DNA of 62,778 nt, the filler included. It is 9 parts of 9 records of this genome, joined end to end, with 100 filler letters (N's around TTAATTAATTAA, not from the genome) between each part and the next. Parts side by side here need not be neighbours in the genome. Positions count along the whole stretch, not along the records: positions 39,365 to 48,113 come from DRR723986_13505; 8 more parts are not named here. One strand, given 5' to 3'. Of the stretch, positions 27,025 to 57,641 are shown piece after piece. Positions within the stretch are counted from its first letter, which is position 1, and the number at the start of each line of letters is the position of its first letter. The notes below the pieces were generated by a model. The model worked only from the letters and a program-made list of their open reading frames with translations, did not search any database and was not told the DNA's origin. A program made the position numbers and the translations under genes.

Positions 27025-27124
27025 NNNNNNNNNNNNNNNNNNNNNNNNNNNNNNNNNNNNNNNNNNNNTTAATTAATTAANNNNNNNNNNNNNNNNNNNN
27101 NNNNNNNNNNNNNNNNNNNNNNNN

Positions 27125-33606: not shown

Positions 33607-33706
33607 NNNNNNNNNNNNNNNNNNNNNNNNNNNNNNNNNNNNNNNNNNNNTTAATTAATTAANNNNNNNNNNNNNNNNNNNNNNNNNNNNNNNNNNNNNN
33701 NNNNNN

Positions 33707-39264: not shown

Positions 39265-39364
39265 NNNNNNNNNNNNNNNNNNNNNNNNNNNNNNNNNNNN
39301 NNNNNNNNTTAATTAATTAANNNNNNNNNNNNNNNNNNNNNNNNNNNNNNNNNNNNNNNNNNNN

Positions 39365-39458
39365 TGTGTGTGTGTGTGTGTGTGTTCAAGGGGGAGGGGG
39401 TCGGCTTGTCCCTGGTGTGTTGTTCCATGTGCTCACCCTCCCCCTCCTCCACGCACAG
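39365..39458 (+). other. Eukaryotic intron 3' end with a (TG)10 microsatellite
   Basis: (TG)n at 39365-39384, branch-like GCTCAC at 39431-39436, polypyrimidine tract and CAG acceptor at 39456-39458. Protein-like sequence starts exactly afterwards. Confidence 0.7.
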
Positions 39459-42400
39459 GCACCACCACGACCGCGTCGCTGTACGTGGATGGTCACTTGG
39501 AAGGCAGCGTGGCCAGCTCCAGCGTGCCTGCCGCAGGGGCGTCCGTGCACTTTGGCGGCGGCGCGTGGGGCGGGGCGAGCGCGTCTGGGGTGCTCGCGGA
39601 CGTTCGCGTGTACGACGCGGCCCTGTCGCCAACCAGCGTGCTGTTCGTGGCGCAGGTGTCGTCCAGCGACGGCACGGCGTGCGACCGCACCACCACGGAC
39701 GGGGTGTCGTGGGGCGTGTGGGGCTGCGGGACCGCCGCCACGCCGTCGTACCGGTGCGGCTCGCTCAACCAGCGCGCAAAGGTGGAGACGAGCGCGGAGC
39801 TGGGCGCGACGTGGGACTTGGGCGACGACGGCGTGTGGGAGGCGAACAACGTGGCCAAGTCCGGGCACGCGAACGGCGGCGTGCTGTGCTGCCTGGAAGA
39901 CCCCGCCACCGCGCACTTTGTGGACGTGTCCATCACCGAGCTGGTGGAGAACAAGCGGTACGAGGTGAAGGCCGAGTTTGTGGTGGACGGGCAGTACACG
40001 CTCAGCATCCGCGACCGGGCGCTGGAGGACAACGCGGGCAACAAGCTGGTGGGCGACACCGCAGACCTTCCCGCCCACGTGGACACCACCGCGCCCACGC
40101 TGCAAGTGGAGCTGCTGACCATGCCGGGCCCCACCGACGACACGCACCTCGAGTGGCTGGTGACGGCGAGCGAGGTGCTCAAGGACTTCTCGGTGCAAGA
40201 CCTGGCGCTCCTCACGGCGTCGCTGGCCACGGCGCAGGACCAGCCCACCGTCAAGACCGTGGTGCAGGCCAACCTCGAGTACGTGGTGCAGGCGGACGTG
40301 CAGTTCGACGACGACTACACGCTGACGGTCGTGGAGGAGGCCGTGACCGACCTCGCGAGCCTGCCCAACCCCGCCACCGCCTCTGCCGACCGCTCGGCCC
40401 TCATCGACACCGCCACGCCGTCGCTCTGGGTGGGCCTGGCCAGCTCCAGCGGGCCCATCAGCGACCCCGTGATCAAGTACAACGTGTACAGCAGCGGCGA
40501 GAGCGCGGAGCCCACGCCACGGCGCTTCGGCGCGGGCCTGCTCGCGCGGTGGACCTTCGACGGCGACGCGGACGGGGACGGCTGGTTGGCCGACCGCGCG
40601 TCGGACACGTTCCACGGCAGCGTGCGAGGGGTGGGCGTCGCGCGGCCGGGCGGGGTGGCCGGGTCGCTGGGGCTCGGGCTGGGCGGGCTGGCGGCCGTCA
40701 GCGTGGGCCAGCACTCGTACCTCACCGCCACCACCACGCTCACCGTCTCGCTGTGGGTCAAGCTCACGGACACCACGGGCGAGCAAGTGTTCTTCGGGTC
40801 GCAGGGCGCGGCGAGCTTCGCCACGGTGGGCAAGACCGCCGCGCACCTCCTGTTCGTGGACTCGCCCGCGGCCGCCACGGCGTCCGGCGGCGGGCCGACG
40901 ATGGAGCAGGACCGCTGGTACCACGTGGCGCTCGTCAACGACGACGGCGCGCGCAAGGACCTGTTCGTGGACGGCGCGCTCGTGGAGAGCTTCCCCGCCA
41001 CGGCGGTGTCCGGCCCCGACGGGTTCGACCTGTTCATCGGGTCCGACGGCACGGCGTCCACGCGCGTGCGCGGCGTGCTGGACGACGTGCGCTTGTGGGA
41101 CCGCGCCCTTGCGCCCCTCGAGGTGGCCGGGGTGTTCGCGGAGACGGCCAGCCTCGGCGCCGAGGTGCCGGCCTCCGCGCTGGCCGTCCACTTCAACGCC
41201 TCGGCGCAGTCGGCGGCCGCCGTCGACGCGGGCACCGCCGTGGACAGCGCGGGCGGGCTGGCGCTGCTGGCGCTGCTGCCCTCGGCGGCGTCGTACCACG
41301 GCGTGCACCACGGCGTGCCGAGCTGGGACCTGAGCAGCGGCGCGAGCCTGCAGCAGCAGGCGGGCGGCGGTTCCACCACGCACGCGCTCCCCGCGACGGC
41401 GTACACGCACGCCTACTGGGTGTTCTTCGACGACGGCACCACCAGCGCGTTCCTGTTCGAGTCGGACACGCACGTGCTGGCCGCGGTGGTGGGGGGCGAG
41501 CTGGGCCTGTGCACCACGGCCGCGTGCGACGCCGGCTCGTTCGTGGGCTCGGGCCACCAGCTGGTCACCGGCCAGTGGCACTTGGTGGTGGTCGTGGTGG
41601 ACGCCTCGAGCGCGCCCGGCACGTCCACGTTCCTCGTCGGGACGGGCCGGGTCGGGCCGCGCGGCACGGCGGCGGTGGGCGTGGCGCCGTCCGGCGCGCT
41701 GCGGTCGCTGGGCGCGGGCACGGGCGGCGGGGCCGGCAGCGGCGCGTTCGTGTCGCAGGCGCTGCTGTGGGACAAGGCGCTCTCCGCGGTGGAGGTGCAG
41801 CAGCTGTGGGACCAGTCCAAGTTCGAGCACTTTGGCGGCTTCTGCGACGTGGAGTGCCAGTGGTCGTCCGAGTTCGCGTCGGTGCCGCACCCCAAGGCGC
41901 TGTGGGCGTTCGACGTGGCCGGCGACAGCGTGGGCACGGACACGAGCGTGATGCTGAACCACATCGGCGCGTTCGGCACGGCGCAGTTCGCGGCGCAGGG
42001 GCGCTTCGGGGGCGGGCTCAGCCTCCCCGACGCGTCGTCGGCCTTCCTCGCCCCCACCACCACCACCAACGTCGTGTACCCGCCCGTCACCACCGAGTAC
42101 AGCGCCAAGGTGCCCACGGGCGTGCCCACCGGCACCGCGCACTTCACCGTGGCGGCGTGGTTCCGCACGGACGCGGCCAGCGCCTCGGACAGCGTGCTGG
42201 TGAGCTGGGGCCAGGGCACCACGGGCGCCAACGTGGTGGGCGTGCTGGCGGACGGCGCGGGCGTGTTCCACTCGTTCAGCGACTCGCTCAGCGCGGTGAC
42301 GGCGGGCATTCCCTCCTCGTCTTCGTCGTCGCCGTCGTCGCGGTGGTCGGGCACGCTCGCGGACGGGGCGTGGCACCACGTGGTCGTCTCGCGCGGGGCC

Positions 42401-45400
42401 GCGCTCGTCACGCTGCACCTGGACGGTGACCTGGTGGCGTCGGCGGCGCACAGCGGGCAGAGCGTGGCGAACAAGAACTTCCGGGTGGGCAAGCCGGCGG
42501 CCGCGGCCTTGCAAGGCTTCCAGGGCGTCGTGGACGACGTGGCCGTGTGGAACACGGCGCTCGCGCACGACGACTGCCACAAGCTGTACCGCGCGTGGGG
42601 GGTGGACGCCACGTGGGCGCTGCTGGCGGACGTGGCCCCAGGGGACGTGGCGGACTCGGCGTTCTGGCAGGGCGTGTGCACCGCCGCGGAGGGGCTGGGC
42701 ATGGCCACGGCGAGCGGCGGCGGGGCCGGCGGGTGGGTGGTGCGCGTGGAGGCGGGCGCGCACGCCGACCACTTCCGCGCCCTGTCGGAGGACGTGGGCT
42801 TGTGCGACATGCTCGGCGCGTCCACCGGCCACGCGTGGAGCCCGGCGCGCTACTCGAGCGGCTTTGCGCGCGCGTCCACGGTCGCGTCGGCGTCGGGCCA
42901 CCTCGGGGGAAGCGCCGCCCAGCCCGACGCCGCCTACGGCCGCACCGTTCTGCCGTTCTGGGGGAGCGACAGCGGCGACGCGGCGTTCTCGGGCGCGTGC
43001 ACGGGGCAGTTCGGCGACTGCGAGGCGGCGGCGGTGGCCGGGGTCGCGGCGGCGTGGGGCGAGCCGTTCCGCGTGTGGCTGCAGACCATCCCCGTCGTCG
43101 TGCACGCGGCCACGGGCAGCCTGCTGACGTTCACGGTGCCCGTGGTCAACAACACGGTTGTGAGCAACAGCGGCAGCAGCGGCAGCGGCAGCTTCTACAC
43201 GGCGGTGTTCTTCACGTCGGTGGTGGACGACACGTTCGGGGCGTCGGTGGAGGCGGGGGCGTGGCAGGACGCGGCGGGGCACGCGACGGGCGCCGTGGCG
43301 GCGGCGGACAAGACCGTGCAGGTGGACTCGGTGTTCCCGTCGGTGGTGGTGACGCTGCTGACGGGGGCCGGGCCCACGAACGTGGCGACGATGCAGTGGA
43401 ACGTCAGGTTCTCGGAGCCCGTGACGGGGTTCCTCGCGTCCAAGGCCACGCTGTCCACCACGGCCACGTACGAGGCCAAGCGCATCCAGTCCACGGTCAC
43501 GAGCTTCCGCGAGTACGTGGTGCAGGCCACGGCGCTCAGCGACGGCAACTTCACGCTGATCATGGCGTCGGGGGCGCTGACGGACGTGGCGGGCAACCCG
43601 CTGATCCCGTCCAACACGGACCAGACCGTGCTGATCGACGTGACGGCGCCCACGGCCACCGTGGCCCTGCTCACGAGCACGCCGCTGCAGACGCTGTACG
43701 TGACGCAGCGCGAGCAGGTGACCATGCGGTGGCTGATCACGTTCTCGGAGCCCATCGTGGGCTTCAACACCTCCGAGCTGGACCTGACGTCGCGCACCGT
43801 CAACTCGGCGCCCTTCAACTCCACGCTGGCGCTGGTGGCGTCCAGCGCCGACCGCTACTTCACCGTGGAGCTCAACACGACGGTGTCCGGCAGCTTCCGC
43901 GTGCGCGTGATGAGCGGCACGGTGACCGACCGCGCGATGCTGCCCGTGGGCGACTCCAACGTCAACCAGTTCGCCCAGGTGCAGTGGGACGCCACGCTGA
44001 CGGCGCTGTCGTTCTCGCCCACCATCGCGCTGACGCCCGGCTTCTCGGCGTCCAAGACCGCCTACTCGGGCGTGCTGGGCGTGCTGTACGACTCGTTCAC
44101 GGTGTCGCTGACGTCCGCCGACCCGGGCGCCGCCGTGGTGGTCAACGGCGAGGTGGTGCCGAGCGGCGGCACGTCCAGCCCCATCAGCCCGCCCGTGGGC
44201 AACAGCGAGTGGGCGATCGCGGTGACCGGCGCGGACGGCTACAGCTCCGAGACGTACACGCTGAGCCTCGTGCGCGAGGTGGCCGAGGACGCCGCCGAGC
44301 GCGCGGCCATGGACGCGGCCTGCGCGAGGGGCGCGCTGTTCCCCGAGGCTTCCGGGTGGTGCGACGACGCCACGAAGATGTGCTTCTGGGAGGGCGTCAC
44401 GTGCTCCAGCCCCCTGGGCATCGTGCAGGCCATCGCGCTGCCCAACCTCGGCCTGACCGGCACCATCCCCTCGGAGCTCGGCGCGCTGTCCGAGCTCGCC
44501 GTGCTGCAGCTCAACGACAACCAGCTGGAGGGCGAAGTGCCCGCCGCGCTGGCCGGCGCGCCCCTCCTCACCCTGCAGCTGCAGAACAACTACCTCGCGG
44601 GCGAGCTGCCGGACGCCGTGCTGGACCTGATCACCCTGGACACGCTGGTGTGCTACAACACCTGGCTCACCACCGCGGAGTGCGCGCCCGCGCGCGTGCA
44701 GGGCGCCGTGTCGTACACGCTGAGCTCCGAGGTGGAGATCATCCTGTCCCTGGACGGTCCGCTGGACGAGGGCGCGCTGCGCGCCGCCATCGTGGGTGCC
44801 GTGGACGCCGACCTGGACGACGCGGACGTGTCCATCACCTCGGTCGAGCTCGTGGGCAAGAAGGACTACATCGTGGCCTTCTCGGTGGAGGCCGGCGACG
44901 AGGACGAGCTGGCCGTGATCACCGACGCGCTGACCTCGGCGCTGTCCGACGACGGCGGTGCGGTGCTCGTCACCGAGCTGCGCAAGCAGGGCATCACCGC
45001 GGCGTCGCTGGAGGTGACCTCGCAGCCGACGCAAGGCAGCACGGTCCGACTGGAGCCGCCCGGGGCGGTGAGCGCGTGGGCGGACTCGAACACGGGCTAC
45101 CGCCGCGTCACGGGCACGCTGCGCTGGGCGCGCGCCGCGAACGAGGACAGCATCCTGCGCTACCTCGTGTTCCTCGCCAACGACAAGGGCGAGAGGCTGA
45201 GCGCCACGGAGCTGGCGTCGGTGCCCGTGGAGGCCGGCTCGCTGGAGATCACGCTGACCGACGCGGACGTTGGCGCGGCGACGCAGTTCCTGGTGTACTC
45301 GGCGGCGGGCGACCTGCGGGGCGGGCCCGTGTCGGTCGCCATCGGAGACCTGGTGGCGCCCACGTTCACGCTGCAGCCCACCACCACGGACCTGGTGCAC

Positions 45401-47728
45401 GGCGGCTCGGGCACGCTGACCGTGTCGGTGCAGGCGGGCGACACGTCGAGCGGCGTGGTGTACGACTGGCTCAAGTGGGACGGCGCGCAGTTCGTCAGCA
45501 TCGGCGTGGCGTCGAGCAAGCTGGACCTCGGCCAGATCGGCTTTGCCGACGCGGGGACGTACAGGGTGCGCGTCTCGCTGGCGTCCAACTCGTCCGTGTC
45601 CACCGTCTCGGGGGACATCTCTGTGCAGGTGTTCGGCGAGCCCTCCCTCGCGGACTCGCTCAGCGCGAGCACGCAGATGACGCGGGTGGGCGACGTGGTG
45701 GAGCTGTCGGTCAACGCGACGCGCGTGGTGGCGGACACGGCCGTGGTGGCCAAGGCGGAGGCGGCGGCGGGCCACAAGGCCAACGACGCCTCGGGCCTCA
45801 CGTTCCAGTGGTACAAGGACAACTCCCCCCTGGACGGGGAGGTGTCGTCCACGCTGGTGGTCAGCAGCTTCGACTTTGACAACGTGGGCACGTACACGTG
45901 CTGCGTCAGCGACGGGCCCGCCAAGGCGTGCAGCGCGGCGTACAAGCTCCTGGCGGACTACTGCACCGCCGACGCTTGCAGCGGCAACGGCGAGTGCGTC
46001 AGCTTCGGCAACGGCTTCTACTGCAGCTGCAACGAGGGGTACTCGGGCTCGGACTGCTCCGTGGAGCCGCCGCAGGACACGGGGTGCGCGGACGGGTCAC
46101 GCGAGGGGTTCGCGGACGCCGCGCTGTTCCCCAACGTGGCGGCGTGCGCCGGGTCTTTCGCGGACCACGTGGCCGCGCGCGACGCGCAGGCGATCTGCGC
46201 CAGGGGCTTCCACGTGTGCTCGGGGGCGCTCCGGGTGGACGCGGAGACGCTGGCGGGCGTGTCCATCGACGACGCGCTGGGCTTCGACGGGTGCTTTGCA
46301 ATGGACGCGGCGCACAACAACGGCGGGTGCGCGGCGTGCGCGGCCAACCGCCAGCAGGACCAGATGGGCGCGGTCGGGCGCGACTGCCCCCGCGCGGCGG
46401 CCGCGGGCGAGGACACGTCGTGCCTGGGCAGCGGGCGCGTGGACGCCGTGGCGTCGTCGGGCGACTACCTCACCGGCACGGCGTGCGCCTCCAAGCCCTG
46501 GGTCACGGGCGTGGTGTGCTGCGCCGACAGCCACGAGCACGCGCCCGCGCCCGTCTCGCGCCTGGCGCTGTTCGCGTCGCTGCAGTCCGGGTGGGGCGAG
46601 CGCGTCAACGACGACGACGAGCCCAACTTGCCGCCCATCATGTTCCGCAACGACCACTTTGCGTTCCTGCAGGGCGCCATGGAGGGCGGCGACTTTGGGC
46701 GCGAGAACCCCGTGCTGCAGCTGGAGGCCGGCTACGAGCCCCTCGCCGCCCACGGCGGGCACGTGTTCGTTGCCACCACCGCCGCGGACGAGGCCGACCG
46801 CAACCACGCCACCGCGCGCCTGCTCGTGCACGTGACCAAGTCCGGGCTCGTGTTCGTCGACATGGAGCCCGTGCTCAAGGTGGCGTCCGTGTCGCTGGAC
46901 GGAGTCCGCTTCGCCCACGCCGACACCGCCGCCGAGTTCTCGCCGCTGGCGCTGCGGGGCGGCCTGGTCGCCGCGGACGCGGTCCAGTACGCGTCGCCGT
47001 CGTTCTACCGCAGCGCCGACGGCGTCGTGTTCCTGGCGGGCGTGGTGCGGGTCTCGGACGAGGCCGCGTGCGCGTCCGGCGGCACAACGACGTGCGTGGT
47101 CGCGGACGTGCCCGCCGCCGCCATGCCGCCCAACTGGAGCGCCGGGTCCGCCTACTTCCCCGTCGTGGCGTCGTCGCCGGGCGTGCACCTCGAGTGGCAC
47201 GGCGGCAACAGCACGCTGACGCTGTCCCCGGGCGCTGCGACGGGCGACCTGCTGTTCCTGGACTCGGTGTTCGCCGTGCCCCTCGGCCCGTCCACGCCGA
47301 ACGCGATGGACGTGGTGTCGCTGTCGCCGCCGTGGTTTGCCGACGTGGCCGCGGTGCGCGCCGTGCGCCTGTCGGACAACAGCGTCGTGCTGGGCGGGCG
47401 CGCGTTCTTCGACCCGACGTCCGGCGGCTCCAACCCGCGCACAGTGTCGTTGGGCACCCTGGCACAGGCCTTCCGCCCCACTTTCGTGGTCAAGCGCCCC
47501 GTGGCGTGCCAGGTCGGGCCGACGCGCGACGCGTGCACCCTCACCCTCCTGCCCGACGGCACGATGTGGGTCGGCGTGGGTGACGCGTACGGCAGCGACG
47601 CCAGCGACGGGTTCTGGGTCGCTGTGGACGGCGTGGCGTTTGGTGGGTACGTGCACCAGACTTCTGTTGAGGTGTCCGGCTCGGCGACCGTTTCCGTGCT
47701 GGGCGCTGCAGCGATCAACTTTTCGTGA
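39459..47728 (+). CDS. Large exon of a giant eukaryotic extracellular mosaic protein (LamG, bacterial-type Ig-like, cadherin-like beta-sandwich, LRR, Ig, EGF, Cys-rich, phage tail-fibre-like repeats). N-terminus missing
   Basis: About 2750 open codons with strong G/C third-position bias. LamG: DDVRLWDRAL, DGAWHHVVV. Big: DTTAPT...FSEPVTGF...DVAGN. LRR: LTGTIPSELGALSELAVLQLNDNQLEG. EGF: CSGNGECV...CSCNEGYSGSDC. Confidence 0.85.
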
Positions 47729-47744
47729 GAGATACAGCGTGTAC

Positions 47745-48113
47745 GAGAGCGAGAGAGAGCGTGTGAGAGTGAGTGTGTGTACAAGTGTGCGCGTGTGTGT
47801 GGGTGTGTGTTCTTCCTTGGTGGTTGCTGCCGGCTGATTGTGGTGTGAAGTTCGGAATTGCAACTTTCAACCACGACACACAACGTGGTCTGTTCGCAAA
47901 ATACTGTGAGATTGTTGTCGATTCTCCTCGATTCAACACACCCACAATCCCACGCGCACAGCACACCACGCCACGCCATCGCGTACCAACACCAACGTGC
48001 GGGAAGGGGGGCTTTCCAGGAAAATTGAATTCCACAGAGGAGTATTCGAGAACACCGGCGAGAGAGAGGGTGGGCAGTGTGTTGTGTGTTGTGTGCCGTG
48101 TGCCGTGTGCTGT
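47745..48113 (+). repeat. Low-complexity (GA)n/(GT)n microsatellite-rich intron or UTR sequence
   Basis: GAGAGAGAG and GTGTGTGT runs, an abrupt GC drop after the exon, and no credible ORF. Confidence 0.75.
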
Positions 48114-48213
48114 NNNNNNNNNNNNNNNNNNNNNNNNNNNNNNNNNNNNNNNNNNNNTTAATTAATTAANNNNNNNNNNNNNNNNNNNNNNNNNNNNNNN
48201 NNNNNNNNNNNNN

Positions 48214-48364
48214 CCCGGGCCGCGATTGTCTCGAAGCGGTCGGGCGCGATCCAGTACATCTCTTCGCCCGGCTCGCGGCGCTGCGGCTGTGTCCCGATGC
48301 CGTGAAAATTCAATATGACGTATCGCATGGGGGCGCGGGGCCGCTCGGTAATTGTTTCGGGCAT
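48214..48364 (-). CDS. Polysaccharide deacetylase family protein, N-terminus (3' truncated)
   Basis: VILNFHGIG...EPGEEMYWIAPDRF is typical of the region preceding a NodB domain. EPS context supports the call. Confidence 0.6.
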
Positions 48365-48429
48365 CCTTATGGGATAACGCTGCCCCGGTCAAAAGATCCC
48401 TTTACGCCGCCGCCGCGAGAGCCATTGAT

Positions 48430-49413
48430 ATGCCAGACAATTTTCCGGAACTCTCGGTCATCGTGGTCAGCTACAACACGCGGCAGATGACACTAGAGTG
48501 CCTTGCCTCGCTTTATGCGCAGACAGAGGCCCGGATCGAGGTGGTGGTGGTCGACAATGCCTCGGACGACGGCTCCGCCGAGGCCATCGCAGAGGCCTTT
48601 CCGCAGGCCGTGCTGATCGCCGAGACGGTCAACCACGGTTTCGCCGCCGCGCATAGCATCGCGCTGCCGCATTGCCGGGCCGACTGGCTTTTGCTTCTGA
48701 ACCCCGACACGGTGGTTCTGGACGGGGCCATCGACCGGCTCTTGGCCTTCCGCGACGCCCGTCCCGGGGCGGGGATCTGGGGCGGACGGACGCTTTTCGC
48801 GGACGGGCGGCTCAACCCGGCCTCCTGCTGGCACCGCATGACGCCGTGGTCGCTGGCCTGCCGCGTGGTCGGGCTGAACGCCCTCTTTCCGCGGTTGGAA
48901 TGGATCAACCCCGAGCCCTACGGCACCTGGCCACGCGACAGCGTGCGCGAGGTCGACATCGTGAGCGGCTGCTTCTTCCTGATCGCGCGCGAGACATGGG
49001 ACCGGCTGGGCGGTTTCGACCCGGTCTTCGTGATGTACGGCGAAGAGGCCGATCTCTGCCTGCGGGCCAAGGCGATGGGCTGGCGCCCGGCGATCACGCC
49101 GGATGCGGTCATCGTGCATTACGGCGGCGCTTCGGAGAAGGTCCGGTCCGACAAGATGGTCCGCCTGCTGCGCGCCAAGGCGGAACTGGTGAAGCGACAC
49201 TTCGCCCCCGGCACGCGAAGGCTGGGGCTGGCCCTGCTGGCACTCTGGCCGTGGTCGCGGGCGCTGGCCTGCCGGGTGCTCGCGCTGGCCGGACGCGAGG
49301 GCTTCGCCACGCGCGGCGCCGGCTGGCGCGAGATCTGGCAGCGGCGCTCGGAATGGCGGAACGGCTTCGCCGCCGCCCCGCAGGGCACATCAGACCCGGT
49401 CACGCCGACCTGA
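48430..49413 (+). CDS. Glycosyltransferase family 2
   Basis: SVIVVSYN, VVDNASDDGS, LLLNPD and GGFDPVFVMYGEEADLC motifs. Confidence 0.92.
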   Translation: MPDNFPELSVIVVSYNTRQMTLECLASLYAQTEARIEVVVVDNASDDGSAEAIAEAFPQAVLIAETVNHGFAAAHSIALPHCRADWLLLLNPDTVVLDGAIDRLLAFRDARPGAGIWGGRTLFADGRLNPASCWHRMTPWSLACRVVGLNALFPRLEWINPEPYGTWPRDSVREVDIVSGCFFLIARETWDRLGGFDPVFVMYGEEADLCLRAKAMGWRPAITPDAVIVHYGGASEKVRSDKMVRLLRAKAELVKRHFAPGTRRLGLALLALWPWSRALACRVLALAGREGFATRGAGWREIWQRRSEWRNGFAAAPQGTSDPVTPT

Positions 49414-49492
49414 TCCAGCCCGCGCTGGACGCATCCCGCCCCGATCCTGTATCCCGGGCAACGACCCCAGAGCCGCGAGGAGGCCGCAAGAG

Positions 49493-50869
49493 GTGGTTTC
49501 GATAGACCGCGCCCCCGCAACGGCCGCCACCCCCCTGCCGCCCCTGTCGGACAGGGGGCCGGGCGCGCATGGGCTGATCGTGCTCTTCGTGGTGCTTTTG
49601 CTGATCCCGCTGTCCTTCGACCTCGGCCCGATGCGGCTGACGCCCTATCGTGTGCTGCTGCTGCTGCTCTGCGTGCCCTATGCGCTGCGCGTGCTGGGCG
49701 GCCGGGTCGGCGGGGTGACGATCACCGACATCCTCATGGTCCTCTACGGCATCTGGATGTTCGTCTCGCTCTTTGCGGTGCACGGGACGGAGCGTGTGGC
49801 CTTTGCCGGGATCTCTTCGGTGGAACTGCTGGGCGGCTACTTCGCTGGCCGGGTGCTGATCCGCGGGCCCGGGGATTATCGCTTCTTCTTCAAGGTCCTC
49901 TTCGTGGCGCTGCTCTGCCTTCTGCCCTTCGCGCTGATGGAGGCGGTCAGCGGAAAGCTGATCATTCCCGACCTCCTGCGCCCGCTGGGCGAGACGCCGG
50001 TCCGCGCTCGGACCGCCTATGGCCGCATGGGGCTGGAGCGGGTCTACCTCGTCTTCGACCACCCGATCCTCTACGGGCTGTTCTGTTCGGTCCTGATGAC
50101 CAACCTCGTGCTGATCGCCCGCAACGGCTTCGGCATGGTGGTGACGGGGGGCGTCGCACTCCTTGCCGCCGGGCTGTCGCTGTCGGCGGGACCGCTTCTG
50201 GCCTGCATGCTGCAGATCATCATGCTGGGCTGGTTCTGGGTCATGAAGGGCCGCTGGAAGCTGCTGATCCTACTGACCGGCCTGCTGTACCTGCTCTTCG
50301 TCATCGCCGCCGAGCGCAGCCTTGCCTCCTTCGTGATCGAGAAACTGACGTTCAATTCGAACACCGGCTGGATCCGGCTGGCGGTCTTCGATCACGCCTG
50401 GCGCAACGTGTGGCAGCATCCGGTCTTCGGGCTGGGCTTCAACGATTGGGCCCGTCCCGGATGGCTGACCAGTTCGATCGACAACTTCTGGCTTCTGAAC
50501 GCGGTGCGCCATGGGCTGCCCGCCATGGCCGTCGCGATCGCGATCTACGCCACGCACATCCTGCGGACCGCCCTGAAGCCGCTGACCACGCCCGAATGGA
50601 ACCGGCTGCGCGTGGCCCACCTGATCCCCCTCGTGGCCACCGGCTTCACCCTGACCACGGTGCACATCTGGGGCTCCCTCTTGGTTTTCGTGATGTTCTA
50701 CATCGGCGCCGGAGCCTGGCTCTACACGGCGGCCGAGCCCTCGGCGGAAGGAGAGGCCGCCGCGGCGCCCGTCGAAGGGCAGGGCCGGGCGCCGCGCTAC
50801 ACCCGCTTTCCCGCCGCCGGGGCACCCGCCCGCAGGCCTCCGCTGCCGGTCCGGCCCGGTCCCGCATGA
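49493..50869 (+). CDS. O-antigen ligase / Wzy-like polysaccharide polymerase
   Basis: Many TM segments, FDHPILYG, HPVFGLG and SIDNFWL motifs. Confidence 0.8.
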   Translation: MVSIDRAPATAATPLPPLSDRGPGAHGLIVLFVVLLLIPLSFDLGPMRLTPYRVLLLLLCVPYALRVLGGRVGGVTITDILMVLYGIWMFVSLFAVHGTERVAFAGISSVELLGGYFAGRVLIRGPGDYRFFFKVLFVALLCLLPFALMEAVSGKLIIPDLLRPLGETPVRARTAYGRMGLERVYLVFDHPILYGLFCSVLMTNLVLIARNGFGMVVTGGVALLAAGLSLSAGPLLACMLQIIMLGWFWVMKGRWKLLILLTGLLYLLFVIAAERSLASFVIEKLTFNSNTGWIRLAVFDHAWRNVWQHPVFGLGFNDWARPGWLTSSIDNFWLLNAVRHGLPAMAVAIAIYATHILRTALKPLTTPEWNRLRVAHLIPLVATGFTLTTVHIWGSLLVFVMFYIGAGAWLYTAAEPSAEGEAAAAPVEGQGRAPRYTRFPAAGAPARRPPLPVRPGPA

Positions 50870-51768
50870 GCGGCGCTGGCGACCCATCGCAGAGCCCGCG
50901 CGTCTGCGTCGTCGTGCCCTGCTTCAACCGCGCCGACACGGTGGCCGAGGCCATCGAAAGCGTGTTGGGGCAGGGGTTTCGGGACCTCGAGGTGATCGCC
51001 GTCGACGACGGCTCGACCGATGACAGCCGGGCGGTCATGGACGCGCTCGACGATCCCCGGCTGCGCTGCCTGCAAAACCCCGGCAAGGGGGTCTCTGCGG
51101 CCCGCAACCATGGCGCCGCCGCAAGCCGCGCGCCGTGGATCGCCTTTCAGGACAGCGACGACCTCTGGCTGCCGGACAAGCTGGAAAAGCAGATGGCCCG
51201 GCTGGAGGGCAGCGATTGCGTCGCCGCCTATTGCGGCATGGCGGTCAAGCCCGACACCGACCCCGCCACCCCGGTGATGCGCCGCTACCCGGACCCCGCC
51301 GCCCCCGCGCCAGAAGGCGACATCCTGTCCGCGCTGCTGCGCGGCAGCTTCCTGTCGACGCAGATGCTGGTGATCCGCCGCGACGTCTTCGAGGCGGTGG
51401 GCGGCTTCGACGAGGCCTTGGGCGCGCTGGTCGACTGGGAGCTGATGCTGCGCGTGGCGCAACGCGGCCCGGTGGCCTGCGTCGACGAGGATCTGGTGGT
51501 GCAGCGCATGTCGCCCAATTCCATCACCCGCTCGTCCCGCAGGCGGCTGGAGGCGCAGGAATACATCCTCGCCAAACACGCCGCCCTGCTGGACCGCTTC
51601 CCCGGGGCGCGCGCGCATCACCACCACCGGATCGCCGGGGCCTACCGGCTCGCCGGAGAGATCCGGCCGGCCCTGCCCCATGCGATGCGCGCGCTCCGGA
51701 TCGCCCCGTTCACGCCACGCTACATGCTCACCCTGCTCCGGCTCTGCCTGCTTCGCGCGGTGCGCTAG
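50866..51768 (+). CDS. Glycosyltransferase family 2
   Basis: VVVPCFNR, VDDGSTD, AFQDSDD and GGFDE motifs. ATGA coupling to the previous gene. Confidence 0.92.
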   Translation: MSGAGDPSQSPRVCVVVPCFNRADTVAEAIESVLGQGFRDLEVIAVDDGSTDDSRAVMDALDDPRLRCLQNPGKGVSAARNHGAAASRAPWIAFQDSDDLWLPDKLEKQMARLEGSDCVAAYCGMAVKPDTDPATPVMRRYPDPAAPAPEGDILSALLRGSFLSTQMLVIRRDVFEAVGGFDEALGALVDWELMLRVAQRGPVACVDEDLVVQRMSPNSITRSSRRRLEAQEYILAKHAALLDRFPGARAHHHHRIAGAYRLAGEIRPALPHAMRALRIAPFTPRYMLTLLRLCLLRAVR

Positions 51769-51801
51769 AGCCACGCCGCACCCCTGTCACAAAGGACCGC
51801 C

Positions 51802-52998
51802 ATGCCCCTTCCGCCGATCCCGAACCGCGCCCAGATCCGGTCCGTCCTGCTTGCCGTCCTGCTGGCTCTTGGGGGACCGGCCCTTGCCCGGGATCACGCG
51901 GTCTCTCCCGGTGACGACATCGCGGAACTGCTGCACGGTGGGCAGGTGCGGCCCGGAGACCGGCTGATCCTGAAGGACGGCAGCTACGGGGGGCTGAAGA
52001 TCCGCAACGTCTATTTCAAGGCCCCGGTGGAGATCCGCGCCGAGAACGCCGGGAAGGCCGTGTTCCACGGCATCTACATCGACAAGAGCCGCAACCTGAC
52101 CCTGCACGGCCTGAGCGCATGGGAGCACAAGGCCGACAACGAACGGGTCCTCGTCATGGCCGGCAGGCAGTCCGAGGATATCCGCTTCGTCGGTCTCGAC
52201 GTCCGCGGGCACCCGGATGCGCCCGGAACCTATCAGGGCTGGAGCGCAAAGGACTGGAAGACATGGGCCGCCTCGGGTGTCCGGCTCTACGGTGTCCGCA
52301 ACGCGCTGGTCGACAGCACGATCACCGCCACGAGCTTTGCCATCACGGCCAACAACAGCCATGCCGAGATCATCGGCAACCGCGTGGAGGGCTTCAGCGG
52401 CGACGCGATCCGGGCCCTTGGCGATCATGCGCGGGTGATCGGCAACCGCGTCAGGGACTGCGTCAAGATCAACGGCAACCACGACGACGGCTTTCAGTCC
52501 TGGGCCGGGAAGGACAAGGATGGCAAGATCCGCGCCCAGCGGGATCTGGTGCTGCGCGACAACGTCATCGTCGAATGGACCGGTCCCCGGGATGCGCCGC
52601 TGCGCTGCTCGCTTCAGGGGATCGCGCTGTTCGACGGCCCCTACGACGGCGTGGAGATCGTCAACAACATCATCGCCGTCAGCGCCTACCACGGCATCGC
52701 CGTCTATGGCGGCCAGAACGGCCGGGTGACGCACAACACCGTGGTCACGCCGGACGGCATGCCCGCCAAGAGCCCATGGATCCTCGTGCGGGACAGCAAG
52801 AACGGCAAGGTCAAGCCCGAGAACATGGTCGTCTCGAACAACATCGCCATGGCGCTCAAGGGGCTGGCCGCGAAATCGCGGAGCAATGCCGTCTCCCGCT
52901 ATCCGGCCCGCGTGTTTCTGGATCCGCTGAACTTCGACTACCGCATACGCCCGGACGGGCCGCTGGCCGGGCTGGACATGGGCGCCCATGTGCCCTGA
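51802..52998 (+). CDS. Secreted right-handed parallel beta-helix protein (pectin-lyase-like fold)
   Basis: Signal peptide ending ALA, PGDRLILKDGSY, Asn-ladder repeats, NHDDGFQ and FLDPLNFDYR motifs. Confidence 0.8.
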   Translation: MPLPPIPNRAQIRSVLLAVLLALGGPALARDHAVSPGDDIAELLHGGQVRPGDRLILKDGSYGGLKIRNVYFKAPVEIRAENAGKAVFHGIYIDKSRNLTLHGLSAWEHKADNERVLVMAGRQSEDIRFVGLDVRGHPDAPGTYQGWSAKDWKTWAASGVRLYGVRNALVDSTITATSFAITANNSHAEIIGNRVEGFSGDAIRALGDHARVIGNRVRDCVKINGNHDDGFQSWAGKDKDGKIRAQRDLVLRDNVIVEWTGPRDAPLRCSLQGIALFDGPYDGVEIVNNIIAVSAYHGIAVYGGQNGRVTHNTVVTPDGMPAKSPWILVRDSKNGKVKPENMVVSNNIAMALKGLAAKSRSNAVSRYPARVFLDPLNFDYRIRPDGPLAGLDMGAHVP

Positions 52999-54289
52999 CA
53001 CGTCCGGCGCAGCCCCCACCCGGGCGCCGCAGGAGGCCGATGCTCCCTCCGGCTCGGCGGGGGCCGGGGCGAAACCGCGTCTGGCCATCGTCACCGCGCA
53101 ACTCGGTATCCCCTCCGAGGTCTGGATGATGCGGCAGGCGGCGGCGCTGACCGCCTTCTCGCCGCATCTTCTGGGCTGGAGCCGCACTCCCGACAGCCCC
53201 GCCTCCGCCCTGCCGGAAACCCTGCTGGGCCGGGATTTCCCCGCCCCGCGCGGGCCATGGCCGCGTCTGCTGCGCAAGCTTGGCAGCGCCCGCGCCCTTG
53301 CCCTGCCCGAGGCCGAGAGGCGCGTGCTGCAACAGGCGTTGGAGGCGCTGGCCCCGGATCTGGTCCTCGTGCATTTCGGCTGGACCGCCATCGCCGTGGC
53401 GCAGGCCCTGCCGCCCGGGGTGCCGATGGTGCTGCATGTGCATGGCCGCGACGTCTCTGTGATGATGCGGCAAAGGGCCTACCGGCGGGCGCTGGCCCGG
53501 GCGCTGAAACGCTGCGCCGCGCTGGTCGCGGTGGGGGCGCATCAGATCGACCGTCTGAGGCCCCTCGGCCTGCCCGAGAGGACCGCGCTGATCCCCTGCG
53601 GCGCGCCGCTGGACCTCTTTGCCGCCGCTCCGCTGCCGGCCCAACCCGCCGCCACGGCGGAGACGCCGCTCCGTTTCCTGTCGGTCGGGCGGCTGTCCCC
53701 GGAGAAGGGCATGATGGAAACCCTGCAGGCCTTCGAGGCGCTGCTGCCCGACTGCCCCGGGGCCGAGCTGGTGCTGATCGGCTACGGCCCGCAGGAGGCC
53801 GCGCTGCGCGCCCGCATCGCCGGCGCCGGACTGGAAAGCCGGGTCCGCCTGTCCGGTCGCCTGTCGCCCGAGGGGATCGCCGCCGAACTGGCGCGGGGCC
53901 ATGTCTACCTTCAGCATTCCCGGCAATACGGCGGTGCCCTCGAAGGCTTCGGCGTCACGCTGACAGAGGCGGGGGCCGCCGGGCTGCCGCTGCTGGCCTC
54001 TGCCTCGGGCGGGCTGAAGGACCAGATCGTCGAGGGCGAGAACGGCTGGCTTTTCCCCGAGGGCGACGTGGCGGCGCAATCCGCCCTGATGCTGCGACTG
54101 GCCCGGGATCCCGCCCTGCGCGCCCGCATGGGGGCGCGCGCCCGCGTGCTGGCTGGGCGCTTCGACAGCACCGTGATGGCCGGGCGCCTGCAGGCCCTGC
54201 TGCTGGACGTCGGCCGGGGGGCCGATCCCGACCGGGCCGGGCACGGTCGAAAGGGTCCGGCCGTCCCCGATCAGACCGGGGGCGCGTAG
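52988..54289 (+). CDS. Glycosyltransferase family 4 (GT-B)
   Basis: LSVGRLSPEKG and EGFGVTLTEAGAAGLP (Ex7E) motifs. Confidence 0.9.
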   Translation: MCPDTSGAAPTRAPQEADAPSGSAGAGAKPRLAIVTAQLGIPSEVWMMRQAAALTAFSPHLLGWSRTPDSPASALPETLLGRDFPAPRGPWPRLLRKLGSARALALPEAERRVLQQALEALAPDLVLVHFGWTAIAVAQALPPGVPMVLHVHGRDVSVMMRQRAYRRALARALKRCAALVAVGAHQIDRLRPLGLPERTALIPCGAPLDLFAAAPLPAQPAATAETPLRFLSVGRLSPEKGMMETLQAFEALLPDCPGAELVLIGYGPQEAALRARIAGAGLESRVRLSGRLSPEGIAAELARGHVYLQHSRQYGGALEGFGVTLTEAGAAGLPLLASASGGLKDQIVEGENGWLFPEGDVAAQSALMLRLARDPALRARMGARARVLAGRFDSTVMAGRLQALLLDVGRGADPDRAGHGRKGPAVPDQTGGA

Positions 54290-54975
54290 CCGAACATCTC
54301 GTAGTCGCGCCGGTACAGGCGGTGGACGAGGCGCGCCTCGGCGGGGTCCAGCCCCCGCGCGGTGCGGGGGCGCCCTGTCCTGCGGGCATGGGGCAGGCCG
54401 GACCACGGGATGTCCAGCCTCTCGCAGACGCGACGCGCGCCTGTCTCGAGCTCCTCGAAACGGAAGACGTCGTCGAGCCTTGCATGGCCACGCCCGAACC
54501 CCAGCCGCAGGTACTGGTGCTGCGGCCAGAAGAAGGGCTGCGACATCACCACCGAGCGGTACAGCGGATTGCGCCGCATCCGGTCGAGGAATTCGGCGTA
54601 GTCGAGCCCCTTGAGGTGCTTGGCGGCCCAGGCCATCTGCAGCGGCCAGTCGGTCTTGTCCCGCAGGAAGTGGAAGGCCGAATCCAGCCGGCTCGCCGGA
54701 TCGCGGACGAAGGTGAACCGATAGGCCGAGGCCCAGAGTTCGGGATACATGCGCCGGTAGACGGCGGCGGTGGCATGGGTCATGTAACCAATCGGCGGGT
54801 CGACCTTCATGACCTGCAGAAGGCTGGTTCCGGCGGTCTTCGGAATGTGGATGAAGATCGCGTTGTTCTGAAAGTTCCACGGCAGGGTGCAGGCGTAGCG
54901 GCCGGAATGCCACTGCCGGTCGTAGCGCCGGTTCAATTGCCCGGTCAGGCGGTAGACGGGTTCTGGGATGCGCAT
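54271..54975 (-). CDS. Sulfotransferase family 2 protein
   Basis: 5'-PSB FIHIPKTAGTS, 3'-PB FVRDPASRLDSAF and C-terminal YRRDYEMFGY motifs. Confidence 0.88.
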   Translation of the reverse strand: MRIPEPVYRLTGQLNRRYDRQWHSGRYACTLPWNFQNNAIFIHIPKTAGTSLLQVMKVDPPIGYMTHATAAVYRRMYPELWASAYRFTFVRDPASRLDSAFHFLRDKTDWPLQMAWAAKHLKGLDYAEFLDRMRRNPLYRSVVMSQPFFWPQHQYLRLGFGRGHARLDDVFRFEELETGARRVCERLDIPWSGLPHARRTGRPRTARGLDPAEARLVHRLYRRDYEMFGYAPPV

Positions 54976-55024
54976 GGAGGTCTCGGGGTAGGGGGCAGGA
55001 GCCCCGGAACGGGGCCGCGTTGCG

Positions 55025-55999
55025 TCAGGTCACGCGCGGGCGCCAGCGGAACCTGTGGTTCTGCGGGCGGAGGAGCGCAAGCAGGGGGATGAACAGCAGT
55101 TTCAGGGCCTTTTTCCGGCGCCCCTGACGCCACAGGATGCCGAAGGCCCCCTGACGCAGCAGCAGGCGGTACCCCTCCCTTCCCCATCCATCGTAAAAGA
55201 GCACGTGTATCCAGAAGCCCATGACATCGGCGAAGCTGGCTTCCAGCCCCGGCGTGATCGGGCCGTAGCGGCCAGAGCGCCGAGCGGCCATCAGGAAATC
55301 CAGCCCCTCGATCACTGACGGCATGTTCCGCGTCAGGGAATCCGCGTTCGAAGTCCGCTGCCCGACGGGCGTGGGATGGGTCAGCACCATGAACGGGCCA
55401 TCGCCTGCCATGCGGTAAAAGAGATCGGTGTCCTCGGCCCCCTTTAGCGCCTCGACGAAACCGCCCCTCGCAAGGTAGGCCTCGCGCCGCACGCCGAAGT
55501 ACCCCGCGCCCAGCACCGTGGGGGCCGGGCGGATGCGGGTGATCTCGAAGAAGTCCCGGCACAGCAGCTCTGCGCGCGCGGTGTCGACGTAGCCTTCGAG
55601 TTCCCCGGGCTGCCCGAAAGGGCGGACGCCGAGGAAGACGGCAAGGATGCCGGGATTGGAGGCGAGGGCCCCTTGCAGGGCCTCGCCCGACCAGTCGAAC
55701 CACAGATCGTCGCTGTCGAGAAAGACCAGCCAGTCGCCGCGCGCGGCCTCGGCGCCGGTGTTGCGCGCCGCGCCCGGGCCGGCGTTCGGCTGCTCGATCA
55801 GCCGGATCCTGTCGCCCACCCCCAGCTCCGCGATGGTCCGGCGGACCGCCTCGGGGGTCTGCCCGTCGGTCGAGCCGTCGTCCACCACGATGACCTCTTC
55901 GAGAAAGGGCAGAGAGGGCGGCAGGCTGCGCAGGCAATCAGCGATCATCTGCGGGCGGTTGTAGACCGGAATGATCAGGCTGATGGTCGGCTTCGGCAT
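55025..55999 (-). CDS. Glycosyltransferase family 2
   Basis: LIIPVYNR, VDDGSTD, ARNTG and FLDSDD motifs. Confidence 0.9.
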   Translation of the reverse strand: MPKPTISLIIPVYNRPQMIADCLRSLPPSLPFLEEVIVVDDGSTDGQTPEAVRRTIAELGVGDRIRLIEQPNAGPGAARNTGAEAARGDWLVFLDSDDLWFDWSGEALQGALASNPGILAVFLGVRPFGQPGELEGYVDTARAELLCRDFFEITRIRPAPTVLGAGYFGVRREAYLARGGFVEALKGAEDTDLFYRMAGDGPFMVLTHPTPVGQRTSNADSLTRNMPSVIEGLDFLMAARRSGRYGPITPGLEASFADVMGFWIHVLFYDGWGREGYRLLLRQGAFGILWRQGRRKKALKLLFIPLLALLRPQNHRFRWRPRVT

Positions 56000-56077
56000 G
56001 AAATCCCCGGGACTTGGCAATCGGCGGCAGATGGTCACAGCCGTCCCGTCAAGTCAACGCGGCACCCCCGGCCCGCG

Positions 56078-57088
56078 CTACTCCGGCAGCCCCCGCTGAC
56101 CGCGCAGCTTGGCGAGGAAGACCCCGGCAAGCACCGCCCCGTTGCGCCGGTCCTTGCGCAGCCAGCGCCAGAGCAGGCCCCATTCCCCCCGCCTGAGCAG
56201 CGTCCAGCCATAGATGCGGTTCAGGCGCAGGCTGCGTGCCCTGCGGTCGTCGATCAGCGCACCAAGCGCGGGGTCCGCCGCGATCTCTGCCGCCAGAAGG
56301 CCGTGCAGCCGGTCGCATTGCGCCGCCACCGCGCGGTAATCGACGTCGGTGACAGAGCCCGACGAGCGCTTGCCGCTGACCGCCCCGATCCGCGTCGAAT
56401 AGATGTAATAGGCCTCGTGCAGAACGCCGAAGGCCACGCCCTGCTGCGCAAGCGAGACGAAGAGCGCATGGTCCTCGCCGTGGCGCAGGCCGACCGGATA
56501 GGTCAGCCACCCGCGGTCGTGCAGATCGCGGCGGAACAGCGGCTGCAGAAGGCCCGGATCCAGCGGCCCGAGCGCATCGGCCCTCAGGAAATCACGCAGG
56601 CCCAACCGCTGCACCCGCCCCGAGGCAGGCAGTTGCATCGCCTCGGGCGCGGGGCAATCCGCGTCGAGGTCGTAGTAGATGGGCAGGTCCGCGATCACCG
56701 CGAGGGCGTTCTCTTCCGCCACCGCCAGAAGCCGCGCCAGCCGCCCGGGGGCAAAGGCATCGTCGGCGTCGAGCACCGCGATCCAGTCGCCCCGGGCCAG
56801 CGCGATCCCGTCGTTGCGGGCGGCGGCGGGGCCTTCGTTCCGGGTCTTGCGAAGGGCGGTGACCTGCGGCACCGAGGCTTCGAGGTCGGCGATGACCTTT
56901 GCCGTGCCATCGCCCGAGGCATCGTCGACGATCACGATCTCGACCTCTCCGGCAAGCCCCTCCTGATCCAGCACGGAGCGGACCGCGCGGCGCAGGATCC
57001 GCTCTGCGTTGTAGGCCGGGATGACGACCGAGACGGCCGGGCGCGGGGCGGGATCGTCCGCGTCGGCGTGCATCTGCAAGTCATTCAT
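56078..57088 (-). CDS. Glycosyltransferase family 2 (ExoO/ExoU-like)
   Basis: VVIPAYNA, VDDASGD, GPAAARN, VLDADD and LRHGED motifs. Confidence 0.88.
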   Translation of the reverse strand: MNDLQMHADADDPAPRPAVSVVIPAYNAERILRRAVRSVLDQEGLAGEVEIVIVDDASGDGTAKVIADLEASVPQVTALRKTRNEGPAAARNDGIALARGDWIAVLDADDAFAPGRLARLLAVAEENALAVIADLPIYYDLDADCPAPEAMQLPASGRVQRLGLRDFLRADALGPLDPGLLQPLFRRDLHDRGWLTYPVGLRHGEDHALFVSLAQQGVAFGVLHEAYYIYSTRIGAVSGKRSSGSVTDVDYRAVAAQCDRLHGLLAAEIAADPALGALIDDRRARSLRLNRIYGWTLLRRGEWGLLWRWLRKDRRNGAVLAGVFLAKLRGQRGLPE

Positions 57089-57511
57089 GTCCCGTCCCTT
57101 TCCGCATGCCGCGTGGATCCTCCCGAAGACCGGAAGACACCGACGCAGGTCCGAGGATCACCGTTGCTCTGGCACGTCGGCCTGCACCCATCAAGCCGGC
57201 TGTGATCCGCCCGCCGGGAGGCTGGCACCGGAGAGGTGCCTCACGGCGCTATCGTGGTCTGCGCGCGCCACCTCATGCCTTGTGAGAGGTTTCCCGGACA
57301 AGTGCCTTTCATGGCTGGAAAATACCCCAGCTAACCCGCGCACGCGTCGTAGCGGCGCGAAGGAGACTACAGACGCTGACCCTTGGAAATACCTTCGGGC
57401 GATACATCAGGATTCATTCGAAACGCATTGAAAATAAGATGAATAATATTCCAAAGCACTTCTTTTGAGCAACATAACCCTCATTACCGGATAGACGCTT
57501 GCGCCGGGGGG

Positions 57512-57531
57512 AAGCGCCTTCGAAGGCGCTT
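57512..57531. repeat. Perfect 20-bp palindrome AAGCGCCTTCGAAGGCGCTT at the contig end
   Basis: Read directly from the sequence. Followed by a partial second TTCGAA-centred unit. Confidence 0.6.
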
Positions 57532-57641
57532 TCGAAAGGCCNNNNNNNNNNNNNNNNNNNNNNNNNNNNNNNNNNNNNNNNNNNNTTAATTAATTAANNN
57601 NNNNNNNNNNNNNNNNNNNNNNNNNNNNNNNNNNNNNNNNN

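Follow-up and report, generated by a model that had tools for sequence, protein, structure and literature searches.

What does a giant and apparently eukaryotic protein carry at its far end, and how does that part relate to the tail tips of phages? The question is raised by one part of the window analysed here, a stretch of 62,778 bases made up of nine contigs. On the seventh of them (contig 7, 39365-48113, 8,749 bases) one frame is open from the first contig bases, and this open reading frame (ORF 39368-47728, frame 1, 2,786 codons; its product is P0001) ends in three tandem repeats. A first-pass annotation of the letters had taken these for phage tail-fibre or receptor-binding-like repeats in a eukaryotic giant protein. 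We consider it likely that contig 7 holds the last exon of a eukaryotic (protist or algal) giant adhesin-like gene, which ends in three phage-type heads that are likely packed as a pseudo-trimeric lectin tip. The fold and the phage family of such heads are already known; what appears to be new is their presence in a cellular, apparently eukaryotic, multi-domain family.

The three C-terminal repeats and their fold

The repeats (R1, R2 and R3) and the tail that follows them make up the end of the ORF, and each repeat resembles the head of a phage receptor-binding protein (RBP):

46559..46936, + strand: R1, phage RBP-head-like beta domain, model residues 1-126; SLQSGW at 46577 and VSLDGVRF at 46889-46912
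46937..47293, + strand: R2, phage RBP-head-like beta domain, more divergent than R1 and R3, model residues 126-245; LALRGG at 46946 and LFLDSVF at 47252-47272
47294..47656, + strand: R3, phage RBP-head-like beta domain, the best conserved, model residues 245-366; SLSPPW at 47318 and VAVDGVAF at 47618-47641
47657..47725, + strand: C-terminal tail of ~23 amino acids (aa), pattern v.vsG.a.v...g.s.I, aligned in all 5 module-bearing proteins

Frame 1 of the ORF contains every string quoted in the first-pass annotation, whose count of three repeats holds; the size it gave, ~110 aa, has to be corrected to nearer 125 aa. R2 is without the conserved W of the N-terminal motif and R3 has two conserved cysteines.

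The 389-residue module was searched with phmmer against 1.84 billion representative proteins (E <= 1e-3), which gave 8 proteins, 7 of them credible:

P0002: 1,708 aa, with the architecture of the window protein, E 7.4e-51
P0003: 579 aa, with a signal peptide, E 3.4e-29
P0004: 573 aa, with a signal peptide, E 6.5e-17
P0007: 537 aa, leucine-rich repeats (LRRs) and module, E 1.1e-5
P0005 and P0006: fragments in which unit 3 alone is covered, E 5.5e-7 and 4.5e-6
P0008: 385 aa, bacterial-looking, E 1.1e-4

The eighth, P0009 (E 5.7e-4), is a CBM6/Ig repeat protein matched over a 40-residue stretch; it was considered spurious and left out of the alignments. The eukaryote-type family is thus tiny, with 7 credible matches among 1.84 billion representatives. 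The window protein is colinear with P0002, P0003, P0004 and P0007 through all three units and the C-terminal tail, with 26 invariant columns (alignment A3). Exactly three units are present in each of these five module-bearing eukaryote-type proteins and the module is C-terminal in 5/5; counted without the tail, the window module ends 23 residues before the stop. By eye the tail is also present in the fragments P0005 and P0006. It is modelled with low confidence (predicted local distance difference test, pLDDT, 35-54) and may serve in sorting, anchoring or strand donation. In P0003 (aa 286-415) and P0004 (aa 286-398), R2 and R3 are separated by an insert, a F5/8-type-C / NedA-like galactose-binding domain. 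The inserted domain is complete (PF22633, E 2.1e-16 in P0003 and 1e-7 in P0004) and R3 is kept in both proteins. It is a natural split of the triple head. Further searches added little: P0007 was the only relative among the matches listed in a protein search with alignment A3, and none was found in IMG/VR viral contigs scanned with A3, in metagenome contigs with the window C-terminus and then P0002 as single queries, or in prokaryotic genome contigs with P0008 as query.

The relatives made profile comparison of the repeats possible. Unit profiles were cut from the relatives and aligned, with 5-6 family members each. With hhalign, R1-R3 reached 96.1% (E 2.9e-9, 99 columns) and R1-R2 92.1% (E 6.1e-7, 78 columns), at identities of 14-22% between units. 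Compared to the unit of a bacterial family of three-repeat proteins (units a, b and c; see below), R1 reached 93.9%, R3 94.4% and R2 63.5%; with a deeper bacterial alignment, R2 aligned to bacterial unit a at 92% over 89 columns. The six real profile comparisons, bacterial unit profile included, scored 22.7-55.3 and were all above the column shuffles (30 for each of the six pairs; mean score ~10.5, maximum 16.7), and reversed profiles scored 10.9-15.3. The first-pass annotation had proposed mutual alignment of the units as a test of its idea, and they do align above shuffles as profiles and have a common fold in the models. Judged from the profiles, the three repeats are real but old.

Structures were predicted with AlphaFold2 from a 5-row family alignment, for the 389-residue module (pLDDT 73.0, predicted template-modelling score, pTM, 0.76) and separately for R1-R2 (pLDDT 72.2, pTM 0.70). 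In the models each unit is a beta domain of 9-10 strands, with one fold common to all three. We compared the units with 48,161 PDB representatives using VIA-align, with the best 50 matches listed per search; according to its guidance, a best Z of 7-8 is typical for models that lack a true match. R3 matched the Listeria phage PSA RBP gp15 (6r5w_A) with Z 12.6 and a root-mean-square deviation (rmsd) of 2.5 over 107 residues, followed by the bIL170 head (2fsd_B, Z 10.9), the Pa223 tail needle (10.4), the p2 RBP (2wzp_A, 10.3) and the TP901-1 RBP (9.9-10.3); further down were Zamilon Zav_19 (Z 9.1) and then adenovirus and reovirus heads (Z 5-7). For R1 the matches were 6r5w_A (Z 11.2, rmsd 3.1 over 108) and 2fsd_B (Z 10.0), and for R2 the tail needle of Pseudomonas phage Pa223 (9nxp_A, Z 10.4, rmsd 2.2 over 101). 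The best Z values of the units are above the no-match level of 7-8 and the top seven or eight rows are one kind of protein. C1q/TNF domains were not among the best 50 matches listed in either search, and among the matches listed no solved chain aligned to more than one unit with more than 120 residues. The best solved matches of all three units are thus phage RBP or tail domains, as the first-pass annotation had expected, and the models support a phage RBP-head fold for the units.

Searching viral models (BFVD) with Foldseek gave 29 matches at E <= 1e-3, of which the named ones were mostly phage tail, minor-tail or uncharacterised phage proteins. The top match was the minor tail protein of Microbacterium phage Truong (A0A6M3SZL4; E 4.5e-13, TM 0.68, rmsd 4.2, 379 columns), and this superposition, the sole one to do so, takes in all three units at once. 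The whole three-domain model searched with Foldseek against the PDB gave nothing at E <= 1e-3 and had the p2 RBP at rank 41; the top rows of that search were beta-propellers (TM 0.1-0.2), which we took as repeat artefacts. ESM Atlas matches of the module (scores 0.87-0.88, low recognition) were used as leads only.

A link to phage tail tips is also visible in sequence, through the relatives. P0003 searched by tblastn against 50,697 phage records (2.3 Gb) matched the tail fiber protein of Aeromonas phage vB_AspA_Lolek (E 3e-7). The match is the last 99 residues of the phage CDS (UOW66336.1) and spans all of P0003 unit R1, with 38% identity over 115 columns (pairwise E 4e-16) and the motifs W..atGs...PSYyk.d..VyLrG, LPaGFRPS and LD.I.F. 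In the window protein itself, R2 has a local BLASTP match, YASPSFYRSADGVVFLAG, to the Lolek fibre tip (pairwise E 0.002), and R1 matches this tip with E 0.007. Among PHROGs, P0003 matched phrog_16877 (minor tail, 3.7e-5, unit 3) and phrog_3639 (minor tail, 1.5e-4, unit 1), as well as phrog_26792 and phrog_5339, and P0007 matched phrog_11445 (minor tail, 0.0016-0.0024). The phage head motif named in the first-pass annotation reflects true homology, given the 38% identity of P0003 to Lolek and the minor-tail PHROGs of the relatives. At the level of sequence, the module is homologous to phage tail-tip domains, and this is visible through its relatives only.

Single-chain triple heads in bacteria, a phage model and the window protein

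P0008 is one of nine similar proteins (P0008, P0010-P0017) of 316-400 residues that are without a Pfam family. A signal-peptide-like segment is present in 7/7 members with an intact N-terminus, the other two being N-terminally truncated, and all nine have exactly three units. The signal peptide and an NCBI contig of 454 kb point to a bacterial family. Eukaryotic and bacterial module profiles align colinearly over 306 columns (96.2%, E 2e-9). The P0008 family matches 30 phage records, including the Streptococcus phage Dp-1 tail protein and Streptomyces phage minor tail proteins. P0008 matched phrog_3285 (minor tail, 2e-24) with three stretches, all at the C-terminal end of that profile; tblastn of P0008 against the phages gave none at 1e-3.

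Compared unit by unit, R1 fits best with c, and R2 and R3 both fit best with a (scores 26-52); the bacterial units among themselves score 175-192. One shared ancestral triplication was considered and rejected, as there is no positional correspondence of R1/R2/R3 to a/b/c. Since the bacterial units are much closer to each other and this correspondence is missing, the triplications look independent in the eukaryotic and bacterial lineages, and the bacterial one would be separate and either more recent or homogenised. The predicted model of the phage Truong minor tail protein suggests a third single-chain triple.

How the window module relates to known systems depends on the part considered. The siphophage RBP heads of PSA gp15 (6r5w), bIL170 (2fsd), p2 (2wzp/1zru) and TP901-1 (2f0c/4ios) have a beta fold of ~100-120 aa in common with R1 and R3 (Z 8.6-12.6, rmsd 2.4-3.1 over 95-108 residues, identity 5-13%) and are likewise C-terminal and distal in a long protein. 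However, they have one copy per chain and form a homotrimer on the virion, whereas the window protein has three diverged copies in one cellular-type chain. They are also virion components encoded among tail and structural genes, while the window module is part of one giant ORF with LamG, LRR, immunoglobulin (Ig) and EGF domains. The phage Truong protein, according to the predicted models, has a single-chain triple head like the window module, but it is a protein of the virion, 700 aa long, and the two are 13% identical. The Lolek fibre tip is similar to P0003 R1 across the whole unit, but it is a single copy that ends a podophage fibre. The P0008 family has three tandem head-like units as in the window module, but consists of a signal peptide and three units alone. 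Zamilon Zav_19 (7qrj), Noumeavirus NMV_189 (7qrr), adenovirus knobs and reovirus sigma1/sigmaC belong to the same fold class as the units; these fibre heads of eukaryotic viruses are less similar than phage heads (Zav_19 Z 9.1 and 7.9, others 5-7), homotrimeric and virion-borne.

Our preferred reading of these data is that contig 7 would hold the last, very long exon of a gene for a eukaryotic (protist or algal) giant extracellular adhesin-like protein, with the domain order ConA-like lectin/LamG, Ig-like modules, cadherin-like, LRRs, two Ig, EGF, Cys-rich domain and module. Its last ~390 residues would be three tandem, highly diverged phage RBP/tail-fibre head domains, and three copies in one chain would most likely pack into one pseudo-trimeric knob. 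In this way a monomeric giant surface or secreted protein could show a complete head at its distal C-terminus. Such a head would be a lectin-type tip that recognises a carbohydrate or cell-surface ligand. Its three faces would be separately encoded and hence diverged (14-22% identity), which could give asymmetric or multiple specificities. Candidate ligands are glycans of bacterial prey or symbionts, and roles in self-adhesion, mating or matrix binding are conceivable.

The different parts of this picture do not have the same standing. The data bear out the structural and evolutionary core of the first-pass annotation; its pseudo-trimer is indicated, and recognition of bacterial glycans and a transfer from phage to protist stand as proposals. 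We regard the repeats, their fold, the homology to phage tail tips, the C-terminal position and the copy number of three as established. Viral heads of this fold are homotrimers that bind host surface saccharides, and the PSA, p2 and TP901-1 heads bind saccharides. Pseudo-trimeric packing with threefold symmetry is suggested because solved heads are trimeric, the pTM is high and the three domains superpose together on the Truong model. Sugar binding by the module would follow by analogy, because its solved relatives bind saccharides, four ConA-like domains are present here, and P0003 and P0004 have the F5/8C insert. A wider scenario would be that eukaryotes domesticated a viral or phage head, as a monomeric pseudo-trimer on the tips of giant adhesins and a lectin for bacterial or other microbial glycans, with the single-chain design arising independently in phages, bacteria and protists. 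We put this forward tentatively and consider it somewhat unlikely in its full form.

The fibre head is regarded as the common receptor-binding fold of non-enveloped viruses, found in phages, adenoviruses, reoviruses, virophages and marseilleviruses, and heads of this fold are trimeric (Jeudy et al.; 10.1101/2023.01.23.525297). In the sections consulted, that paper treats it as a fold of the viral world and is without mention of cellular homologues (10.1101/2023.01.23.525297). In the open-access literature we found no cellular eukaryotic homologue or single-chain pseudo-trimeric head described. The single-chain triple arrangement is new as well, with no solved example among the PDB representatives in the matches listed. 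If the wider scenario is true, the window protein would mark the first time that a cellular eukaryote makes use of what is regarded as a hallmark fold of virions; if the protein is eukaryotic, cells would have taken over this recognition device. Having three heads in one chain would drop the need for trimerisation and give a compact, monomeric and evolvable binder, in which each face is free to diverge. The 390 residues form an expressible fragment for asking what protists recognise. The module further draws attention to single-chain triple heads, so far unstudied, of actinophage minor tail proteins and of a small secreted bacterial family.

Origin of contig 7 and competing explanations

The window contigs are strung together by N spacers, and adjacency between them therefore carries no meaning; contig 7 is without a physical link to its neighbours. 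Its GC content is 71.6%; contigs 1-6 have 58-62% and contigs 8-9 have 67-69%. It carries no second gene and is divided as follows:

39365..39458, + strand: intron, probably its 3' end, in which a (GT)n run precedes ctcac, a polypyrimidine tract and the acceptor cag
39459..47728, + strand: single 8.27-kb exon of ~2,756 codons, 5'-incomplete; open frame, GC at third codon positions (GC3) and Pfam domains
47729..48113, + strand: 3' flank of 54% GC, containing low-complexity runs that resemble (GA)n/(GT)n

The contig opens with (TG)10 and has (GT)n runs at both ends. Positions 39432-39458 end in ctcaccctccccctcctccacgcacag, with GC as the first bases past the boundary, and read as a ctcac resembling a branch point, followed by a pyrimidine tract and an AG acceptor. 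The first Pfam domain past this acceptor, Laminin_G_3, begins at profile position 90 of 151, and its first half must therefore sit in an upstream exon off the contig. GC3 of the ORF is 97.4%, against a GC of 54% in the 385-base 3' flank, which is rich in GA/GT dinucleotide runs. Among the relatives, P0007 is a complete ORF found in EukProt, a collection of eukaryotic transcriptomes; judged by eye, the relatives are also rich in N-x-S/T sequons. The last 1,242 aa were searched against one genome each of 185,579 prokaryotic species; Ig domains alone were matched (7 loci, 26-53% identity, including Verrucomicrobia and Flavobacterium), and the Cys-rich domain and the three repeats had no match. 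Contig 7 is very probably eukaryotic. This agrees with the eukaryotic protein of the first-pass annotation, given the acceptor, the (GT)n run, GC3 against the flank and P0007. As for the concern raised there that the contig might be bacterial or chimeric, the contig of the gene looks eukaryotic, while the window as a whole does consist of nine unlinked contigs, eight of them bacterial.

That company is the starting point for a prokaryotic reading, in which contig 7 comes from a high-GC bacterium, phage or prophage and encodes a bacterial giant adhesin with a prophage-derived tip. Eight of the nine window contigs are bacterial (TonB receptor, RecC, PaaA, FadB/FadA, Wzy-like), bacteria own a secreted three-repeat family, and giant proteins of bacteria, too, can contain LamG, cadherin-like and Ig domains, with Ig matches in Verrucomicrobia and Flavobacterium. 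However, it would have to account for the (GT)n run with a canonical-looking acceptor and for a frame that starts in the middle of a LamG domain. A GC3 of 97% next to a flank that has 54% GC and carries dinucleotide microsatellites does not look like the intergenic DNA of bacteria, the module and the Cys-rich domain were matched in no prokaryotic species representative, and P0007 is a complete ORF in a eukaryotic transcriptome set, with N-x-S/T-rich relatives by eye. We consider a prokaryotic origin very improbable. A source in a eukaryote-infecting virus, either a giant virus or a virophage, or an old cellular family borrowed by viruses, would fit with the use of this fold by marseilleviruses and virophages (Zav_19 Z 9.1 and 7.9; NMV_189 Z 6.5 and 7.1) and with a Pithovirus protein found in BFVD at E 1.7e-3; common origin versus transfer is left open by Jeudy et al. 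(10.1101/2023.01.23.525297). Yet the links at sequence level were solely to tailed-phage and bacterial proteins, phage heads are 1.5-3.5 Z units above Zav_19 for R3 and R1, the best match of R2 is a phage tail needle and the IMG/VR scan with the family alignment was empty. Such a source therefore seems quite unlikely.

Another explanation concerns the packing and not the origin. The units could be independent lectin-like beads in the style of tandem carbohydrate-binding modules, without a pseudo-trimer, and three would merely be the copy number of the lineage. Units as divergent as these (14-22% identity) would be expected with separate ligands, and R2 is without the conserved W of the N-terminal motif. 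Exactly three units are present, however, in 5/5 eukaryote-type proteins, in 9/9 bacterial proteins and in the phage Truong protein, after apparently independent triplications. In addition, the three-domain chain has a pTM of 0.76 and superposes globally with a TM of 0.68, and the top solved relatives are all heads of trimeric fibres. Independent beads are thus unlikely, and we prefer three heads that pack as one pseudo-trimeric tip.

Several observations weigh against the preferred reading as a whole. Pairwise BLASTP between the window units gave nothing significant (E 0.18, 8.4 and 21), and a naive 3-way MAFFT alignment, which was discarded, placed R3 out of register; the three window segments by themselves are therefore not demonstrably repeats. 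The hhalign comparison of R2-R3 is weak (8.7%, score 22.7). Neither the units nor the last 552 aa matched any Pfam family at E <= 10. PHROGs gave no family at E <= 0.01 for the window module or for its units taken singly (best phrog_37524, function unknown, E 0.036), the PDB searched by sequence gave two chance-level rows alone (E 0.11 and 0.13), and tblastn of the window module against phage genomes gave one row at E 6. Each link depends on relatives, on profiles of little depth (5-9 sequences) or on structure predictions. Model confidence is middling (pLDDT 72-73, the other four per run 44-68, from a 5-row alignment), the Truong comparison is one of model against model, and AlphaFold may pack the heads as a trimer merely from learned viral trimers. 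The eukaryotic origin is based on contig features and one database label, and contig 7 came together with bacterial contigs. Finally, no signal peptide or anchor is visible, the N-terminus being off the contig.

The remainder of the giant protein and of the window

Upstream of the repeats the exon encodes a series of domains, approximately bordered in the case of the LRRs:

39464..42571, + strand: Laminin_G_3 / ConA-like lectin domains, four stretches; PF13385, E 4.7e-54 overall
43997..44278, + strand: cadherin-like beta sandwich, aa 1544-1637; PF12733, E 2.2e-7 and 3.8e-9 (two scans)
44350..44750, + strand: Cys-capped leucine-rich repeats, aa ~1660-1790, approximate borders; LRR_1 weak, E 5.5e-4
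45359..45931, + strand: two immunoglobulin domains, aa 1998-2070 and 2143-2188; PF13927 and PF13895
45962..46051, + strand: EGF domain, aa 2199-2228; PF00008, E 1.1e-4 and 3.3e-6 (two scans)
46082..46537, + strand: Cys-rich domain of ~150 aa, aa 2239-2390; no Pfam match at E <= 10

Laminin_G_3 in P0001 consists of a C-terminal fragment (aa 33-91) and full domains at aa 442-587, 671-811 and 913-1068. At ~40050-40650 and 43300-43990 modules of ~100 residues recur with the pattern D.TAP...V.LLT..GPT......W.V.FSE.V.GF. They are without a Pfam family except for a weak Big_12 match (E 0.003), and these recurring modules, between the LamG domains and at 43300-43990, are probably Ig-like spacer domains. 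The region corresponding to the LRRs matches LRR_1, LRR_4 and LRR_8 in P0002 and P0007; these repeats may belong to the plant-type LRR class. The stretch that joins the LRRs to the first Ig domain (44750-45350, ~200 residues) had no family match and is kept in P0002 by eye. An ESM Atlas search with the LRR-Ig-EGF-Cys region gave no usable match. The Cys-rich domain (GCADGSREGF ... GFHVCS ... TGVVCC), between EGF and R1, is kept in P0002 and absent from P0003, P0004 and P0007. Overall, P0001 is apparently a giant extracellular protein of the adhesin type, its extracellular location being deduced from these domains.

The spacers between the nine contigs are eight in number, each N44-TTAATTAATTAA-N44:

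5631-5730
13726-13825
20722-20821
27025-27124
33607-33706
39265-39364
48114-48213
57542-57641

Rfam and tRNA scans of the window gave nothing. In contigs 1-6, 13/13 large ORFs scanned with Pfam belong to typical bacterial families, which include DegT aminotransferase, PaaA, TonB-dependent receptor, beta-lactamase-fold, ClpB-like AAA, formamidase, RecC, FadB and thiolase. Translations of contigs 8-9 are bacterial-looking by eye, and six ORFs scanned with Pfam gave 1 weak Wzy_C match and 5 without a match. Contigs 1-6 and 8-9 thus look bacterial and probably come from at least two source organisms. The Wzy_C match is on contig 48214-57541, where it is the sole family match (E 9.7e-7, under the curated cut-off). 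By eye, this contig has the look of a cluster for surface polysaccharides: several of its ORFs resemble glycosyltransferases, and one membrane protein resembles an O-antigen ligase.

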